Virus genome (UHGV): UHGV-0173755
Origin: a virus
Length of the DNA: 31,090 nucleotides
Reading direction: 5' to 3' (one strand)
Shown: positions 10,321 through 27,877 of the stretch, piece by piece
How positions within the stretch are numbered: the first letter of the stretch is position 1
Layout: each line of letters starts with the position of its first letter
Notes under the pieces: model-generated
Database searches by the model: none
What the model saw: only the letters and a program-made list of their open reading frames with translations
What the model was told of the DNA's origin: nothing
Made by a program: the position numbers and the translations under genes

Positions 10321-10523
10321 TTCGATTTACTCCGTTTTTTCGGCGCAGCGTCGGTATCATCCGCCGTGTTTTCGGTGTTCCCGACTTCAACCACATCACC
10401 GGCTGCAAGGCGACGTATCCAGAAACTGTTACGGGGCTTTTCTTCTCCCTCCGGAGCCAGTAATTTCATCGTGAGCGGGTCACGGATGGCTTTTCCCGCT
10501 GCGGGTTTAATTTTCAGCATCAT
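10317..10523 (-). CDS. Small head-tail region protein (Mu gp38-like)
   Basis: 68 aa ORF, tandem ATG at 10518-10523, overlaps end of upstream gene. Confidence 0.5.
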
Positions 10524-17455: not shown

Positions 17456-19110
17456 TACCAGCCCCCTCGTTCAAACTGGTGATAATCATCAAAATCATCG
17501 TTATCAACATCATCACCACGGTGGCGTGGTGGCAGCGCCTGTATGCTGTCCTCGTCGATAACAAAACCATTCATATAAGACGCCCTGACAGCCATACAGA
17601 GCGCCACGGCAAAGTCGCCATGTCGTCGGCCTTTACCACCTTCATCTTTTGTGCGCCCCTTATCAATCTGCGGAATACCTTTGTCCACCTTGATGTGGAG
17701 CAGGTCATCAAGAGTGGTCTGGTGCCGGGCAATCGTGATGTTCTGCGCTTCAAACTCGCCTTTCAGTTTTGGCATCCACTCCTGATACCAGGATGCGGTC
17801 AGATTCACACAGTCGATCATCTCCGGGCCATAAATCAGACGGGCGGCTTCTGCCAGATAACCGCCGTTACCGGTGGCATCAAATGCAGCGCCGGTAAAAC
17901 GGGGCAAACGGGACAGAATGAATAAAAGGATTTGTCGCTGCTGGTCATAGGTCACATTACGCAGCTCCACGCGGAAACATTCGCGTTTGCGTAAGTCAGG
18001 AGTGATGGCAAGCGGCACAAACACCGTCAGGTCGCCACGGCGTGCAAAGTCTTCGCCCAGTACGTGTTTATTGAGCGGCGACAGCGCATCGAGCAACGGG
18101 AGCAGCTCCTGTTCACACCAGTCCTGAACGATGCCGTGGCGCATTTGTGGTGTCAGCGATTCAAAATCGTCCGGGGCTTCAAAACGCAGAATCGGGATAT
18201 CCCGCGCTGGCGTCATGGCGGCTTCAATCAGCACGCGTGACAGATAAGCGCCCCCGGATTTTTTAGGAATGCAGCCGTATTCCTCGTCGGCACTCTCTTT
18301 ATTCGGCGCATTCCGGTACAGGCCATCACGCCAGGCTTTTTCCGCTTCCGGCGACCACGGCTGATTCGTGACGTAACAGATACGTCGGTACAACCCGTCA
18401 GCGATGGCATCATCCAGCGTGATACGGTGAACGCTGTAATCCTTGCGCCCCTCGCGCGCATCCTGAATGTACTGGTTAAACAGGTTATCGACGCCGTTAT
18501 GTGTCGATATGATCCGCACGCGGGCACCCCACATGGTGAGCGCAAAGGCCGCTTTCAGGAGTTCGTCCAGGGCTTCATGAAATGCCGCCTCATCAATCAC
18601 CACGTCCCCCTGCAAACCACGCAGGTTAGACGGACGGCTTGACAGCGCCTGCACCTTAAATCCGCTGTTAGGGAAACGGATCATATAAGTGAGGATTTCT
18701 TCTTTTTTGTCGCTGTCCCAGAAGGTCTGCTCCCAGACGTCAGCCTTTGCCAGTTGGTTAAAGGCACGGGCAAACAGGGCACAGGCGGCGATGTATTCCA
18801 GCGCCATTTCCTGACGGGAACCCACATAAAAGACGTTGCGACCACCGCGACGCTTCGGCTTTGCGGCCGTCATGACATTGCGGCCCGCTTCGGCCCATGT
18901 CAGACCGGTACGACGGGATTTTTCAGCGATGCAAATCTGGCTTTCATCCTCAAACCAGCGCCGCTGATAGCCCAGAAAAACCGGTTCATTGCGGGGCTGT
19001 GCTTCCCCGATATCGGTCACGATATTCACGCCGAGCAGTTCGGCTTCCTCACGCAGGTTGATTTTGCGGGGCGCATGAAGGACTTTAAGTTTGCTTTCTC
19101 TGGTGCTCAC
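17455..19110 (-). CDS. Terminase large subunit (Mu gp28-like)
   Basis: 551 aa ORF; only in-frame start is GTG at 19108-19110 with no obvious SD; size and position before portal. Confidence 0.85.
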   Translation of the reverse strand: MSTRESKLKVLHAPRKINLREEAELLGVNIVTDIGEAQPRNEPVFLGYQRRWFEDESQICIAEKSRRTGLTWAEAGRNVMTAAKPKRRGGRNVFYVGSRQEMALEYIAACALFARAFNQLAKADVWEQTFWDSDKKEEILTYMIRFPNSGFKVQALSSRPSNLRGLQGDVVIDEAAFHEALDELLKAAFALTMWGARVRIISTHNGVDNLFNQYIQDAREGRKDYSVHRITLDDAIADGLYRRICYVTNQPWSPEAEKAWRDGLYRNAPNKESADEEYGCIPKKSGGAYLSRVLIEAAMTPARDIPILRFEAPDDFESLTPQMRHGIVQDWCEQELLPLLDALSPLNKHVLGEDFARRGDLTVFVPLAITPDLRKRECFRVELRNVTYDQQRQILLFILSRLPRFTGAAFDATGNGGYLAEAARLIYGPEMIDCVNLTASWYQEWMPKLKGEFEAQNITIARHQTTLDDLLHIKVDKGIPQIDKGRTKDEGGKGRRHGDFAVALCMAVRASYMNGFVIDEDSIQALPPRHRGDDVDNDDFDDYHQFERGGW

Positions 19111-19166
19111 GGGTGAAAAATCCGGTATAAATTTCCAGGCATTAATCAGTAAAAAAAGAGGTTGTT

Positions 19167-19361
19167 ATGAAAGAAAAACTGACCATTGATCAAAAAATCG
19201 AAATTGCCCGGATAGCCGTGCAAATGTTTGAATCCACCCGGGCAAAAGGCGTTTCACTTGAGATCTCCTGTTCAGGAAAAGCATCAGAGGAAGAAAACAC
19301 ATTTAATGCTTTCTACAAAATTGTTGAAAAAATCGTTATCGGTGAACCTGAGAATAACTGA
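19167..19361 (+). CDS. Small AT-rich hypothetical protein on the opposite strand (64 aa)
   Basis: ATG 19167 with AAGAGG SD 7 nt upstream; TATAAA -10-like at 19126-19131; ~39% GC by eye; 3' end overlaps convergent ORF by 26 nt. Confidence 0.4.
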   Translation: MKEKLTIDQKIEIARIAVQMFESTRAKGVSLEISCSGKASEEENTFNAFYKIVEKIVIGEPENN

Positions 19362-19533
19362 TCACCTGGCCCGCTGTAGCCGGGCCATCCACCAGTTGCA
19401 TAACCAGATACAGGGCCTCGGCCATAATTCGTGGATGGACTTCCGGATCCTCATCAATCTGTTTTTTCACAACGGGCCACAGTGCCATTGCCAGTTCTGT
19501 TGAGGTCTTGTATTTAGTTTTTTCATCCGCCAT
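19336..19533 (-). CDS. Small hypothetical protein (about 65 aa, acidic)
   Basis: ATG at 19531-19533 with GAGG SD overlapping upstream TGA stop (translational coupling); ORF track 67 aa from ATG 19539. Confidence 0.4.
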   Translation of the reverse strand: MADEKTKYKTSTELAMALWPVVKKQIDEDPEVHPRIMAEALYLVMQLVDGPATAGQVISYSQVHR

Positions 19534-19543
19534 TTTCATTTCC

Positions 19544-19714
19544 TCAGGACAAAGTCCTTAGTTGTTTTATGGTCGTATGCCATGAATTGCCTGAAGCCAT
19601 AGCCTGAACAAGCACATCCCGAATCTGGTGTATCAACCGGACATCAGACAATGTTGCAATCCTGAAGGCTTTTTTATGGGCACTGATTAGCTGTGCTTTG
19701 TAATCATTTTTCAT
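19544..19714 (-). CDS. Small hypothetical protein (56 aa, basic)
   Basis: Internal ATG at 19712-19714 preceded by AGGAG SD 7 nt upstream, 10 nt after gp27-like stop; ORF track's 121-aa version overlaps gp27 out of frame. Confidence 0.45.
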   Translation of the reverse strand: MKNDYKAQLISAHKKAFRIATLSDVRLIHQIRDVLVQAMASGNSWHTTIKQLRTLS

Positions 19715-19724
19715 AACGTAACTC

Positions 19725-20300
19725 CTACGCTTTCCCCAGCAGTACATCACGGATGCGCTGCTCCAGTTCTTCGCTGATGCCATCCTGCCCGCGCAGTTCT
19801 TCACTGACGGCGTTTGCCGCTTCTTCTGCGAATGCCTGGCGGATTTCTTTCTCGCGCCGGTGGCTGGACATTGCTGTGGATTCCAGACGCTGTGCCGCCA
19901 GCATGGCATTTTTCAGCAGGTCAATATCCACGTCAGATTCCGGGTTTTCGATTTGCCGCATCATGGCCTTAAAAAGCTGGCTGCGGGCCATTTCCAGAAT
20001 CAGCTTTGTGGTTTCGCCCATTGGCTTGTCGCCAAGCTCTGCGGTCAGTGCTGACGTCATTTCACGCATCTGTCGCAGGTTATGGCCTACCTGCTCGACG
20101 TTCGTCGCGTAACGGTTCAGACCGGAACGGGAGAGTTTCATCTCATCCGGCAGGCCAGCGTCTTCAATCAGTGCGTTAATTTCTTCAAGAATACGGGCCT
20201 GTGGGATCGCCTTATCACGCAGCATTTCATGCAGCGTTTTACGTACGTTTTCCGGCAGTAAATCCACTTTTGAAGCCCGTCCCCGTGTTTTCCTGTCCAT
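19725..20300 (-). CDS. Mu gp27-like protein (putative small terminase/DNA-packaging protein)
   Basis: ORF track 196 aa; ATG at 20298-20300 preceded by AGGAGG SD is the likely start; synteny upstream of large terminase. Confidence 0.65.
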   Translation of the reverse strand: MDRKTRGRASKVDLLPENVRKTLHEMLRDKAIPQARILEEINALIEDAGLPDEMKLSRSGLNRYATNVEQVGHNLRQMREMTSALTAELGDKPMGETTKLILEMARSQLFKAMMRQIENPESDVDIDLLKNAMLAAQRLESTAMSSHRREKEIRQAFAEEAANAVSEELRGQDGISEELEQRIRDVLLGKA

Positions 20301-20311
20301 CACGCCTCCTG

Positions 20312-20602
20312 TCATGCACGGGGACGAGGACGCTTGACACCGGCAACGCGGGCGCGGCCTTCCGCCACATCCTGACCACGGGAGGTCAGCGTTACGACAT
20401 AAAAGCCGCGCAGGTTTTCCACGGTGACCAGTTGCTGCTCTGCCAGCCAGTCAATCTGGCCGCGAACCACATCGCGGGAAACGTTGTGTCCGTATGCATC
20501 CAGACAGTCCTGAAGGATGGATTCGTTTGCTTCGTTATTGCAGTCCATCAGGGAACGCAGGATGACCAGACGACGGTCTTCGGTGAGAATATCGTTAATC
20601 AT
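20312..20602 (-). CDS. Hypothetical protein (Mu gp26-like)
   Basis: 96 aa ORF, ATGA overlap with upstream gene. Confidence 0.5.
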   Translation of the reverse strand: MINDILTEDRRLVILRSLMDCNNEANESILQDCLDAYGHNVSRDVVRGQIDWLAEQQLVTVENLRGFYVVTLTSRGQDVAEGRARVAGVKRPRPRA

Positions 20603-20898
20603 GAATTACTCCGGTTTACTGCGTTTTCAAGCAGCAGCTCCAGTTGATGGGAAAATGACTGCACCCGCTGGGACAGCACCCGGATATCGCCGGACAGCTC
20701 TGCAATACGCAGGCGCATTTCGTGTACATCTTCTGTGCCGGGGATGCTGGCGTAGCGGGTTTCCATTTCGGTCATCCGGTTTTCAAGACGCTCCACACGC
20801 TCAGTGCTGGCAAAACTACGACGCATTGCCCAGACGGCCCCACCGGCCACAACAGGCAACAGGTAAGGCCATAACGCTAAAACTGAAATCAAATCCAT
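20599..20898 (-). CDS. Membrane-anchored coiled-coil protein (Mu gp25-like; lysis-associated)
   Basis: ATG at 20896-20898 with GGAG SD; N-terminal hydrophobic helix MDLISVLALWPYLLPVVAGGAVWA then heptad-like region. Confidence 0.5.
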   Translation of the reverse strand: MDLISVLALWPYLLPVVAGGAVWAMRRSFASTERVERLENRMTEMETRYASIPGTEDVHEMRLRIAELSGDIRVLSQRVQSFSHQLELLLENAVNRSNS

Positions 20899-21092
20899 TA
20901 TTCTGCTCCACGGCACCAGTGGCAGTAGTTCGCCATCGGCTGCTGTCTCAGCACATCAGGCCGCAGCTCACGACCGCAACCGGCACACAATACAGGCGGG
21001 TCATACGCCGCCGGGCGGGGAATATCACGGGTATCCCCCTGCCAGAGTTCAGCGAGCAGCAGCGCCACCGCCCGGTTCTGGTCTTCGTTCAT
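20898..21092 (-). CDS. Small Cys-rich protein (CxxC...CxxC; Mu gp24-like)
   Basis: 64 aa ORF, ATG 21090-21092 with AAGGAAAG SD; two CxxC pairs. Confidence 0.45.
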   Translation of the reverse strand: MNEDQNRAVALLLAELWQGDTRDIPRPAAYDPPVLCAGCGRELRPDVLRQQPMANYCHWCRGAE

Positions 21093-21390
21093 AAATTTCT
21101 TTCCTTCGGGTCTCCTGTTCCCGGACTGATGCCTTGTCGCGGTTGCACTGCCCGAGCGCCATCAACAGGTCAGCATTCCAGAGAAGGGATGCTCCCCACG
21201 TCAGGGGCTGTGGCATGGGCGGAACGGGCGTTGCTTCCGTCAGTTCTGCATCAGTTTCGGGCAGGATCACCACCGATGGCACGGGTGCGTTTTTCGAGTT
21301 CCCGCAACCTGTCAGCAGCAACGGCAGGCACAGGACGAGTGCTGCAATTGTCACCGGTAATGGCGGTTGTAATTTTTTGTTTTGCATCAT
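21049..21390 (-). CDS. Outer-membrane spanin-like lipoprotein, overlapping i-spanin gene out of frame
   Basis: Signal peptide plus lipobox LLTGC in MMQNKKLQPPLPVTIAALVLCLPLLLTGC; Pro-rich; start codon uncertain (ATG 21388-21390 or 21403-21405). Confidence 0.55.
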   Translation of the reverse strand: MMQNKKLQPPLPVTIAALVLCLPLLLTGCGNSKNAPVPSVVILPETDAELTEATPVPPMPQPLTWGASLLWNADLLMALGQCNRDKASVREQETRRKEIYERRPEPGGGAAAR

Positions 21391-21637
21391 GATGTTCTGT
21401 CTCATCTGCCAGCCGCGCGGCACGATTTGCGGCACGGATAGCGGAAAATACCTGCATCGTCTGTTCCTGACTGTGTAACAACCATTCAGCCGTGTTGCGG
21501 ACCTGTTGCTCCGTCTGTAATTCACGGCGCAGCGTCTGGTTATCGTGGCGGGTGCTGTCCAGCCTGTGCCACAACACCCCGGACAGAACGGCGGCAAACA
21601 CGGCTGCCAGCAGTAAACTTTTACTGGCGAAGGTCAT
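21251..21637 (-). CDS. Inner-membrane spanin-like protein (Mu gp23-like)
   Basis: 128 aa; N-terminal TM helix then charged helical region; immediately after endolysin. Confidence 0.6.
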   Translation of the reverse strand: MTFASKSLLLAAVFAAVLSGVLWHRLDSTRHDNQTLRRELQTEQQVRNTAEWLLHSQEQTMQVFSAIRAANRAARLADETEHHDAKQKITTAITGDNCSTRPVPAVAADRLRELEKRTRAIGGDPARN

Positions 21638-22139
21638 CCGCCCCCCTGATATTCCAGATAGCCATTTCCACTTCGCGACGGTTCATCAGTCCTTTCCATT
21701 TATGGCCTGCGGCAAACACCCAGCGGGCCATCTGGTCACGCGCTCCGGCGTAATCACCGGCATTGAGTTTTTTCAGCAGCGTTGATTTACTGAATGCGGT
21801 AACACCGGTGTTGAAAATAAACGTTGCCAGCGCCGTTTTCTGATATGGCGTCAGCGGCACCCTGACAAGACGATCGATTGCCGCATAAACCGGTTTTAAA
21901 TCACTGTCGAGGAGAGCCATACACTCCGCATGGCTGTAACGGCGCATTTCGATATCCGGCCCGGTATGCCCCACACAGACCGAAAGCACACCGCCAATAT
22001 CGCGGTAAGGCATATAAGCGATATTTTCCAGGTGGATCAGAGACTGACGGGTCATTTCCTGATAACCACCCACACCGCCACCGGCAATCGTTACAGCCAG
22101 TAGTGTGGCTTTCAGTTTTTTTGGTATCCCCGCCATCAT
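21621..22139 (-). CDS. lys: Endolysin with N-terminal signal-anchor-release (SAR) domain, lysozyme family
   Basis: 172 aa; N-terminal weakly hydrophobic Gly/Ala-rich segment KATLLAVTIAGGGVGGY; first gene after C. Confidence 0.85.
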   Translation of the reverse strand: MMAGIPKKLKATLLAVTIAGGGVGGYQEMTRQSLIHLENIAYMPYRDIGGVLSVCVGHTGPDIEMRRYSHAECMALLDSDLKPVYAAIDRLVRVPLTPYQKTALATFIFNTGVTAFSKSTLLKKLNAGDYAGARDQMARWVFAAGHKWKGLMNRREVEMAIWNIRGADDLRQ

Positions 22140-22205
22140 GCTTCCCTGAAAAAATGCTCTGATGGCAGTCTAAAAAATCAGGTGGCAGGTGCGGGATTAT
22201 GGTGA
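22140..22205 (-). promoter_or_regulatory. Candidate C-dependent late promoter P_lys
   Basis: Intergenic C-lys; contains CCCGCACCT (minus strand; plus 22187-22195), shared with region upstream of I. Confidence 0.5.
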
Positions 22206-22209
22206 CAGG

Positions 22210-22236
22210 AAATAACCGGCAGGATGCCGGTTATTT
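22210..22236 (-). terminator. Stem-loop overlapping C stop codon (candidate middle-transcript terminator/attenuator)
   Basis: AAATAACCGGCA-TCC-TGCCGGTTATTT 12-bp stem read directly; weak T tract. Confidence 0.4.
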
Positions 22237-22653
22237 TGGGCTTTCAGGTGAGAACAGATCAGGCTGATGACGTCGTGTATGCAGCTTTCTCTGGCGGGCA
22301 ATAATCTGGTAGATCTGCGGCTGGGACAGGCGGTACTGGCGACGCAGTTCTTCCATGTTACGACCATTAAACTGGCAGTAAAGCAAATCGTCGCGTAACG
22401 CGGTCAGGATCGTATCGCCGCAGGGGATGTAAAACTGCCGTCCACCCAGAAAACAGGACAGGGCAACGGCCTGTTTACGGGCAAGTTCACGGGGATTGCT
22501 GACGTTCTGGCGTTTCAGTTCGTTTTCCAGAACATCAATCAGATCAACCACCGAACGGGGCCAGCGTGATTCCAGTTCCGGGGCCGGGATGTTATCAATA
22601 TGTCCGATTAACTGGCGAATTGCCGGATCGTGTTCAAATAAATCATGCTGCAT
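22231..22653 (-). CDS. C: Late-gene transcription activator C
   Basis: 140 aa, sequence MQHDLFEHDPAIRQLIGHI... recognised; C-terminal HTH paralogous to Mor. Confidence 0.9.
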   Translation of the reverse strand: MQHDLFEHDPAIRQLIGHIDNIPAPELESRWPRSVVDLIDVLENELKRQNVSNPRELARKQAVALSCFLGGRQFYIPCGDTILTALRDDLLYCQFNGRNMEELRRQYRLSQPQIYQIIARQRKLHTRRHQPDLFSPESPK

Positions 22654-22665
22654 ATTTTCCCCCGG

Positions 22666-22785
22666 TTAACAGACAGAAAGATACACCACGGCACTGATGG
22701 TTATCAGAACCACAAGGGCAATCACTTTTATCGCACTCATCAGCGTGGACGGCCCGAAACATTCATCACTGAATTTTCTGTACAT
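22666..22785 (-). CDS. Small hydrophobic peptide (39 aa; candidate Mu gp20-like), below ORF-track threshold
   Basis: My own translation MYRKFSDECFGPSTLMSAIKVIALVVLITISAVVYLSVC; fills gap between membrane protein gene and C. Confidence 0.35.
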   Translation of the reverse strand: MYRKFSDECFGPSTLMSAIKVIALVVLITISAVVYLSVC

Positions 22786-22794
22786 GGTGCCCCT

Positions 22795-23157
22795 TTACCC
22801 GAACAGACGAGCGCGAAAACGAAAGGAGAGCCAGAACGTCAGCAATCCGGCCAGCGCCCAGATGACATGCTCAGGACCCGTTTTCAGTTGAGACGTTGCC
22901 ATCACGGCTAATCCCAGCCCGGACAGACTCCCCAGCCAGGTCAGAGGCCAGACGAACCGGGCAAAATGTTCAGGCACCCGGCAGCTCATTATCAGCGCAT
23001 CCAGACAATCACCGGCAACACATAAAGCAACACTGAAAACCGAGGCACAGCAAAACATCAGCGCGCGCCAGCCACAAAACAGACTTATCCACAATAACAG
23101 CGCCAGTAACACCACCGATAAAAAATCAGGCCACTGACGAGCAGAACGCTCAGACAT
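22795..23157 (-). CDS. Multi-pass membrane protein (candidate Mu gp19-like; holin-like candidate)
   Basis: ATG at 23155-23157 with GGGAG SD; several hydrophobic helices; ORF track 137 aa from TTG. Confidence 0.55.
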   Translation of the reverse strand: MSERSARQWPDFLSVVLLALLLWISLFCGWRALMFCCASVFSVALCVAGDCLDALIMSCRVPEHFARFVWPLTWLGSLSGLGLAVMATSQLKTGPEHVIWALAGLLTFWLSFRFRARLFG

Positions 23158-24737: not shown

Positions 24738-25042
24738 TTTGCGGCCCTCAGAATAAATTCAGGATAAAATTTCAGACTCATTTGCCGTAACACATCCAGT
24801 GCAGCAACGGCTGCTGATTTATCGTTGCCATCAGCAATAGCGCGGAGATTTTCAATAATCCAGTGAGGACTCAGTGACTCAGCAACAATGCCAAACCGGT
24901 ACGCCATGACCTCATCAATAGCTTTTTCATGAGACGGCTTATATACAAAATTCACAAAGTCATGCACTTCTTTTTTCGGCAAACCACCGGCAATCAGCAG
25001 GGCGGCAAGCTCTTCTGATTTTGAAAATACACCATTATTCAT
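24734..25042 (-). CDS. Hypothetical early protein (about 102 aa)
   Basis: ATG at 25040-25042 with AGGTGA SD; ORF track version starts at GTG 25057. Confidence 0.5.
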   Translation of the reverse strand: MNNGVFSKSEELAALLIAGGLPKKEVHDFVNFVYKPSHEKAIDEVMAYRFGIVAESLSPHWIIENLRAIADGNDKSAAVAALDVLRQMSLKFYPEFILRAAK

Positions 25043-27126: not shown

Positions 27127-27146
27127 TGTCAGCGTTCCTTTGCGAA

Positions 27147-27416
27147 TTAATGTCTGGCTGTATTCGGGTTATAGCTGAATAATTCCCCCTCGGCTTCCAG
27201 CCCAAGCTCCCTGGCTGATTTCAACAACTCCTCGGTCGCTTTTTTAATGATTTCAGGAGCCATGCTCTTGATGATGCCTGCCATTACATCATGTGGCCCG
27301 GTCTGGTCCTCAGGTGAGGATTCTTCCAGTCGCACATTCATATTTACGGCAAAACCTCCATTTTCCTGAAACTCAATATTTCTTGTATTGTTAAATTCAA
27401 AGATTACTTTCGCCAT
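27147..27416 (-). CDS. Hypothetical early protein (about 89 aa), AT-rich
   Basis: Internal ATG at 27414-27416 with AGGT SD; ORF track 137-aa version overlaps upstream gene. Confidence 0.5.
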   Translation of the reverse strand: MAKVIFEFNNTRNIEFQENGGFAVNMNVRLEESSPEDQTGPHDVMAGIIKSMAPEIIKKATEELLKSARELGLEAEGELFSYNPNTARH

Positions 27417-27429
27417 TTTCATTACCTGC

Positions 27430-27642
27430 TTATTGATTAACGGGTGTTGCATTTGTGATTTTGTTAAGTTCACAAAACACATCTTCTGCGTGATGATGGT
27501 TGCCGACATGAACGACCAGCCGGCGACCATCAATAAATTCAAAAGCAATACCGCCCTCAACAGTCGTTTCCATTACACTGACATTATCAAGGTTGATTAA
27601 CTTACTGATTCCCAGATTATCGTGAATATTTATCACCATCAT
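27430..27642 (-). CDS. Hypothetical early protein (70 aa), AT-rich
   Basis: Tandem ATG 27637-27642 preceded by GGAG SD. Confidence 0.5.
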   Translation of the reverse strand: MMVINIHDNLGISKLINLDNVSVMETTVEGGIAFEFIDGRRLVVHVGNHHHAEDVFCELNKITNATPVNQ

Positions 27643-27649
27643 TTAAATA

Positions 27650-27877
27650 CTATCTCCAGATTATCTGACAACCATTAAGACGGGCCGTCCATACAGAACG
27701 GGCCACCCCGGACTTATGCTCCATAATCCTGACCGCGTTTTTTACCAGTTCCACCGGTGGGTAAGTGATTTCAAGAATCGGACGCGCCACGCCGAGATAT
27801 GATTCATTTACATGACTCCCGCGCGCCTGTAACCAGTTCTGCGCATCCGTTGCCATTTTTATATTTCGGGCCATCAT
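27650..27877 (-). CDS. kil: Kil-like host cell-division inhibitor
   Basis: 75 aa ORF immediately downstream of B, as in Mu. Confidence 0.65.

Follow-up and report, generated by a model that had tools for sequence, protein, structure and literature searches.

How does a phage lyse its host when no holin gene stands beside its endolysin gene, and what does a small cysteine-rich protein do among its lysis genes? Both questions are raised by positions 20599-22139 of a 31,090-nucleotide stretch of the virus genome UHGV-0173755 (the window), where the genes for gp19, gp20 and gp22 to gp26 discussed below lie on the minus strand. These positions comprise the first, promoter-proximal genes of the late lys operon in a relative of phage Mu. 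Megablast gave 98.6% DNA identity to Mu over the full length of window positions 20000-23000, a region that also matched D108, SfMu and several Yersinia Muvirus phages, and local blastn showed the window to be collinear, in reversed orientation, with Mu 1099-31991. In the curated Mu record AF083977 the same stretch encodes the signal-anchor-release (SAR) endolysin Mu_22, the i-spanin Mu_23, the o-spanin Mu_55, the hypothetical protein Mu_24, the releasin Mu_25 and the winged helix-turn-helix protein Mu_26, all downstream of a C-activated late promoter; older gene names for the cluster were found in RefSeq. The five open reading frames (ORFs) that a preliminary description of this DNA had assigned to a lysis cassette are present in the ORF list at the places given there, and they match annotated Mu genes. 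The cassette is the published holin-less lysis cluster of Mu and its recognition here is a rediscovery, as the cluster was already known from experiment and curated annotation.

Gene set, gene order, overlaps and promoter are the same as those of genes 22-25 of the Mu lys operon (AF083977; Chamblee et al. 2022, mBio, PMC9239132). A residue-by-residue comparison showed that gp24, gp25 and gp26 are 100% identical to the Mu proteins. The difference from Mu consists of a few substitutions in gp22 (98.2% identity; A11T, A48G and T52S), gp23 (95.3%; six substitutions) and gp23.1 (95.6%; five substitutions). The gp22 and gp23.1 alleles of the window also occur in the plaque-forming Yersinia Muvirus phage vB_YpM_5, whose cassette proteins are identical to those of the window except for two substitutions in gp23. 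The intergenic region between C and lys is 94/95 identical to Mu and includes the C-activated late promoter P_lys, from which the cassette is transcribed (22147-22213, minus strand, mapped from Mu annotation 10403-10469). Family matches of the encoded proteins (PF00959, PF23793 and PF10805) all exceed the curated cut-offs, and the PHROG spanin and endolysin families agree with them.

The first gene, gp22 or lys (21621-22136), encodes a SAR endolysin of 171 amino acids (aa) that belongs to the GH24 lysozymes; an in-frame ATG at 22139 lies one codon upstream of the annotated start. The SAR endolysin had been recognized from its N-terminus in the preliminary description, and this identification is borne out by a match to the phage lysozyme domain PF00959 (124.6 bits, cut-off 22.3), by the Mu_22 annotation and by hydropathy analysis, which located an uncharged, Gly/Ala-rich stretch of weak hydrophobicity at residues 10-26 (maximum Kyte-Doolittle value, KD17, 1.32). 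G, A, S and T make up 62.5% of residues 10-25, a composition of the SAR type. The segment is preceded by K6, K7 and K9, and K6 and K7 are thus intact in the window. E37 and D46 of the catalytic triad E-X8-D-X5-T are present, while position 52 (codon at 21981-21983) is Ser and not the annotated catalytic Thr52. Among solved structures, those nearest to gp22 are RrrD (4zpu) and the SAR endolysin of phage 21 (3hde/3hdf), at E ~ 1e-36. Both gp22 and the phage 21 endolysin R (E = 5e-36) combine a GH24 lysozyme with a signal-anchor-release domain at the N-terminus; in gp22 the cytoplasmic tail is longer and Lys-rich, and the SAR segment is rich in Gly. The two systems also differ in how the enzyme is set free: phage 21 depolarizes the membrane with the pinholin S21-68, whereas Mu is without a pinholin and depends on gp25. 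Experiments with Mu gp22 showed that it has the traits of a SAR endolysin and can be released by S21-68, and that Lys6 and Lys7 confer the dependence on gp25, which is abolished when Ala replaces K6 or K7 (PMC9239132).

The cytoplasmic tail of the endolysin varies among relatives. In an Erwinia tracheiphila prophage (L011, ~1200-1330) the N-terminal cytoplasmic tail of the gp22 homologue contains eight PKS repeats (MPKIPKSPKSPKS...SLKASLL), and this run is located exactly where Lys6 and Lys7 of Mu confer releasin dependence. Several gp22 homologues among the loci L012-L016 read IPKSLKA or IPRSLKA, with Ser7 instead of Lys, yet these loci keep a DUF2730 gene. Since replacement of K6 or K7 by Ala abolishes gp25 dependence (PMC9239132), the phages with Ser7 may use the releasin differently. 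The endolysin gene of L012 is apparently broken by a premature stop.

The gp25 gene (20599-20898, 99 aa) is the fourth after lys and encodes the releasin, a protein with an N-out/C-in transmembrane domain (TMD) followed by a cytoplasmic helical domain. It starts at the annotated ATG at 20898; a GTG at 20916 would extend the ORF to 105 aa. The protein matches PF10805 (DUF2730) with 50.4 bits (cut-off 24.9), its TMD spans residues 3-25 and is followed by R26 and R27, and with this arrangement it agrees with the type I DUF2730 releasins of PMC9239132. The statement of the preliminary description that a gp25 equivalent had been reported as a releasin is correct, as both the AF083977 annotation and PMC9239132 show. 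The description as a single-TM coiled-coil protein was right on the TMD; for the coiled coil a heptad count gave no clear support (best register 0.60), and we speak of a helical cytoplasmic domain only. Lysis of Mu is abolished by the 25::cam deletion, and expression of only gp22 and gp25 leads to lysis at ~50 min, compared with ~40 min for the lysogen (PMC9239132).

No typical holin beside the endolysin had been noted in the preliminary description, and rightly so: the coding strand of 20599-22139 has no TMD-bearing ORF besides gp23 and gp25 according to the ORF list and hydropathy analysis. The only other membrane proteins encoded nearby are gp19 (22795-23157) and gp20 (22666-22785), whose genes belong to the middle operon and precede gene C (Mu annotation); neither has a Pfam match. 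With four TMDs in gp19 and one in gp20 their topologies are holin-like, they are encoded ~0.5-1 kb upstream of lys, and a holin-antiholin pair formed by the two is attributed to Samanta et al. as cited in PMC9239132. The small, late-expressed membrane protein gp25 could also be taken for a holin. However, genes 19 and 20 belong to the middle and not to the late operon and are dispensable for Mu lysis, which is unaffected by their inactivation. Moreover, neither genes 19, 20 and 25 singly nor the three combined kill the cell after treatment with dinitrophenol (DNP), and DNP delays Mu lysis instead of triggering it (PMC9239132). Mu therefore has no holin. For Mu, a holin function of gp19, gp20 or gp25 is already refuted by experiment, and for the window it is hardly credible.

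Disruption of the outer membrane can be assigned to the products of the next two genes. gp23 (21251-21637, 128 aa) encodes an i-spanin with an N-terminal TMD (residues 7-23, KD 2.28) and a helical periplasmic domain, and matches the Rz-like spanin family phrog_214 at 4.7e-34; it had been described as i-spanin-like before, which fits. gp23.1 (Mu_55; 21049-21390, 113 aa) encodes the o-spanin lipoprotein. It starts within gp23 in a different frame and ends 202 nucleotides beyond the end of gp23, so that the architecture is overlapped as in LysB/LysC of P2 and not embedded as in Rz/Rz1 of lambda. The out-of-frame overlapping lipoprotein ORF noticed earlier is thereby confirmed, with a lipobox LTGC containing Cys29 and a match to PF23793 LysC, the model of overlapped o-spanins of the P2 LysC type (55 bits, cut-off 27). 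The same match disposes of the view that this o-spanin is abnormal, as it had been called unusually long and Pro-rich: the mature protein has 85 aa of which 10 are Pro, a modest 12%, and a penta-proline run as in lambda is not found in it. In Mu, a 23.1 amber mutant shows the spherical-cell phenotype of spanin defects and is rescued by lambda Rz/Rz1 (PMC9239132). Apart from the remark on the o-spanin, all elements of the preliminary description match the published work on Mu lysis, and the transmembrane and lipoprotein features that it proposed are upheld by simple hydropathy and motif analysis.

As has been shown for Mu, whose proteins are identical or nearly so, lysis would begin when the late activator C switches on P_lys. 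The endolysin gp22 would be exported and stay tethered to the inner membrane in an inactive state through the SAR segment at its N-terminus, with Lys6 and Lys7 blocking spontaneous escape from the membrane. The releasin gp25, a membrane-tethered cytoplasmic protein, would promote escape of gp22, after which the active lysozyme would degrade the cell wall, and the outer membrane would be disrupted by the gp23/gp23.1 spanin complex. Because the cassette has no holin, membrane depolarization would not be the trigger of lysis. The Mu mechanism can be applied to the window since K6, K7 and the Gly-rich SAR segment are kept and gp25 is identical, and no evidence contradicting it emerged from this analysis. 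As gp22 and gp25 suffice for lysis (PMC9239132), gp24 is dispensable for release of the endolysin, and it would stand outside the core lysis mechanism.

This leads to the second question, the identity of gp24 (20898-21092, 64 aa). It had been called the least explained member of the cassette, and so it is: gp24 is a 'hypothetical protein' in AF083977, it matches phrog_3260 (PHROG label: unknown function), the text of PMC9239132 mentions it nowhere and a literature search found no paper on Mu gp24. The two CxxC motifs reported for it are present, as C36, C39, C57 and C60 form the pattern CxxC-x17-CxxC. Comparison of the window with the 61%-identical L004 homologue outside the gp23.1 overlap gave a ratio of nonsynonymous to synonymous substitution rates (dN/dS) of 0.32 at a dS of ~1.0, and judged by this substitution pattern gp24 is a real gene under purifying selection. 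The gp24 family has very few members: five clusters came out of a word-indexed search through 5.8 billion proteins, and P0008 was the only full-length homologue that exhaustive HMMER searching of 1.84 billion representatives contributed beyond these; the remaining HMMER matches were rejected as long repetitive proteins or frameshifted fragments. In both the P0008 contig and L004 the gp24 homologue is located between the o-spanin and the DUF2730 gene. Of the Escherichia coli variants P0002, P0005, P0009 and P0013, some carry C60S and some are frameshifted after ~20 residues, and the loss of a Cys or of the frame in these copies suggests that gp24 decays in some prophages.

A wider view of the position that gp24 occupies was obtained by adding a further seven loci with a DUF2730 gene, found in Erwinia, Kluyvera, Apirhabdus, Citrobacter and another enterobacterium. 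The locus scan used a 4-sequence DUF2730 alignment, a 6-sequence version being too divergent. An ORF of 64-75 aa with four Cys ends at the DUF2730 start in all 12 loci examined (12/12). Homologues of gp22, the o-spanin and gp26 are recognizable in the same order in 10 of the 12, and gp23 was detected in nine; one locus, L003, is cut off upstream in this comparison. With a hidden Markov model built from a TraR-type alignment, the occupants of the slot between the o-spanin and DUF2730 genes could be divided into a TraR type in three of the 12 loci and a gp24 type in the other nine. The TraR-type occupants are those of L007 (a Mu-like element inside an Stx1a phage; PF01258, 45.9 bits), of the Pseudoalteromonas phage HS6 (gp35; PF01258, 27.7 bits; annotated 'DksA-like zinc-finger protein') and of Citrobacter braakii (L017). 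The L007 cassette also has a SAR endolysin and a DUF2730 protein, and the family of the L007 and HS6 proteins matches TraR of the F plasmid over its full length (E = 3e-9). Moreover, the Burkholderia transposable phage KS10 has a dksA/traR gene (gp7) between its lysis and terminase genes, the location shared by HS6 gp35, the L007 protein and gp24. The positional orthologues of gp24 thus include bona fide members of the TraR/DksA family.

Direct comparisons point in the same direction. C36, C39, C57 and C60 of gp24 are in register with C37, C40, C58 and C61 of TraR, which means that the spacing of the zinc site is the same. In a BLASTP alignment of gp24 with the L007 protein (E = 0.015), each of the four Cys is matched by its counterpart. 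Profiles of gp24-type and TraR-type proteins were aligned by hhalign with 69% probability (E = 4.4e-5, 59 columns), and with broader alignments the probability was 76% (E = 2.3e-5) over the zinc finger. Sub-threshold matches were obtained to NCBIfam DksA_like (E = 0.019) and, in the same register, to DksA in PDB (2kq9, E = 1.2). An AlphaFold2 model of gp24 has a helix at residues 3-17, then the zinc-finger region and a short helix at residues 45-50. Foldseek with this model gave RNA polymerase (RNAP)-bound TraR as the top PDB match (6n57_M, E = 0.34, 61 columns), followed by DksA fingers with 0.6-0.9 Å root mean square deviation, and the list of BFVD matches was headed by zinc-finger proteins of the DksA/TraR type (E = 0.029, probability 0.98). 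With F TraR, lambda Orf73 and P2 Orf82 (PMC9239242), gp24 shares the small size, the acidic-tipped N-terminal helix and the CxxC-x17-CxxC pattern. The links to TraR found in this way agree with each other but are weak. Together with the positional orthology they make it probable that gp24 descends from a TraR/DksA-type gene that occupies the same slot in related transposable phages, and gp24 can be annotated as a probable degenerate zinc-finger protein of the TraR/DksA type.

A Mu-type late lys operon that works as published, together with gp24 as an accessory protein derived from TraR/DksA, is very likely the explanation of the whole cassette. This explanation comes with several caveats. Small zinc ribbons with CxxC motifs can arise by convergence, and the signals of homology between gp24 and TraR, taken individually, stay below threshold (Pfam, the PDB match to DksA and the Foldseek match to TraR). 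PF01258 was matched at E <= 1 by none of the eight gp24-type proteins. The AlphaFold2 model was built on a 4-sequence alignment and has a predicted local distance difference test (pLDDT) score of 76.8 and a predicted template modelling (pTM) score of 0.39. In gp22, the third position of the triad has Ser for Thr; this exchange is conservative and found in a viable phage, and since the plaque-forming vB_YpM_5 encodes an identical protein the Ser52 form is presumably active. Finally, the experiments behind the mechanism were all done on Mu, to which the window would be joined by its sequence identity.

If gp24 is derived from TraR, it could still act like TraR by binding in the secondary channel of RNAP late in infection, thereby shifting transcription away from host rRNA promoters as does Orf73 of lambda. 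True TraR homologues are found among its positional orthologues, the segment preceding the first Cys has 35 aa compared with 36 in TraR, the ED of the acidic tip is invariant or nearly so, the zinc-finger spacing is the same and the top fold match is TraR on RNAP. Such a function, however, has structural demands. TraR homologues need a DxxDxA helix tip, R48 contacting the rim helices, R49 contacting beta' Si3 and a C-terminal helix contacting beta Si1, and proteins of the DksA family that are without these features do not function like DksA/TraR (PMC9239242). Unlike TraR, gp24 has neither an intact DxxDxA tip nor equivalents of R48 and R49 nor the C-terminal helix, and it stays below the PF01258 threshold. 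At the tip, Mu gp24 reads E3-x-x-N6-x-A8 in the ungapped register, and the second acidic position is taken by T, V or Q in its relatives. R48 and R49 correspond to V47 and L48; this V-L pair is kept in the Mu-like ones, five of the eight gp24-type proteins, and the Erwinia and Kluyvera members have E-L. gp24 ends four residues past its last Cys, whereas the TraR-type orthologues continue there for 12-13 residues more. In L007 the TraR-type orthologue has kept the DxxDxA tip, an equivalent of R48 and its C-terminal helix, with Leu in the place of R49. Canonical regulation of RNAP by gp24 is therefore unlikely, and that gp24 retains a role like that of Orf73 is no more than a slim chance. Instead, we infer that gp24 is most likely a zinc-binding protein of the cytoplasm with an accessory role, whose gene is carried along on the lys transcript.

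An accessory factor could also have been recruited for lysis itself. In that case gp24 would be a cytoplasmic zinc protein, coupled to gp25 in its translation, that binds the cytoplasmic domain of gp25 or the Lys-rich tail of gp22, and would time the release of the endolysin in place of a holin. One base is common to the stop codon of gp24 and the start codon of gp25 (TAATG), and in all loci examined the four-Cys ORF ends at the DUF2730 start. The purifying selection on gp24 would agree with such a role, the loss of the RNAP-contact signature of TraR would fit a new function, and the mechanism of timing is left open by PMC9239132. On the other hand, gp22 and gp25 lyse the cell on their own with a delay of about 10 min relative to the lysogen, so gp24 is not needed. 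Tight overlaps are furthermore found throughout the operon: gp22 and gp23 overlap by 17 nucleotides, gp24 and gp23.1 by 44, and the end of gp25 overlaps the start of gp26, which is not a lysis gene, in the sequence ATGA. In addition, motif-intact TraR-type proteins fill the same slot beside a SAR endolysin and DUF2730 in L007. The adjacency of gp24 and gp25 may for this reason be inherited and not functional. The tight coupling of both genes allows a role of gp24 in releasin control without demonstrating it, and a timing function is improbable on balance. Similarly doubtful is the broader proposal that gp24-type proteins are TraR-derived, have shed all signatures of contact to RNAP, are kept by purifying selection with their genes coupled in translation to the releasin gene in the Mu-type cassettes of enterobacteria, and were perhaps co-opted to regulate the releasin or the endolysin tail from the cytoplasm. 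An accessory zinc-binding protein of TraR/DksA descent remains the preferred interpretation of gp24.

The cassette is followed by gp26 (20312-20602), which encodes a winged-helix protein (NF050184, 129 bits) and is the next gene of the operon, given here as context. Long antisense ORFs on the plus strand (e.g., 20517-21392, 291 aa) overlie the annotated genes and are annotated in no Mu record. Further downstream, an insertion of ~600 bp relative to Mu (19110-19709) is located exactly between the genes for gp27 (terminase small subunit) and gp28 (large subunit). It contains two convergent ORFs, one on the plus strand (19167-19361, 64 aa) and one on the minus strand (19336-19539, 67 aa, phrog_21398; PHROG label: unknown function), and among sequenced phages only the Yersinia phage vB_YpM_Tongde matches it, in part and with 88%. 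L004 has two convergent 64-aa genes at the same terminase junction. Elsewhere in the window, blastn found no match in Mu for 24741-25032 and 27142-27650 in the semi-essential early region; the latter stands in place of the Mu E5/E6 genes as a mosaic replacement. Positions 1-61 match Mu 34977-35037 in the sense opposite to the rest of the window, which indicates a G(-) orientation of the invertible G segment when compared with the reference.

The cassette is a textbook case of holin-less lysis, and apart from a small gain on gp24 this analysis adds nothing new to its biology. What is added is a testable, annotation-level lead on gp24, the sole uncharacterized gene of the cluster, for which the intact TraR-type orthologues provide controls. 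This lead could end with gp24 as a transcription-related passenger or as a regulator of the releasin step. If gp24 did time the release of the endolysin, it would be the missing timing element of holin-less lysis.

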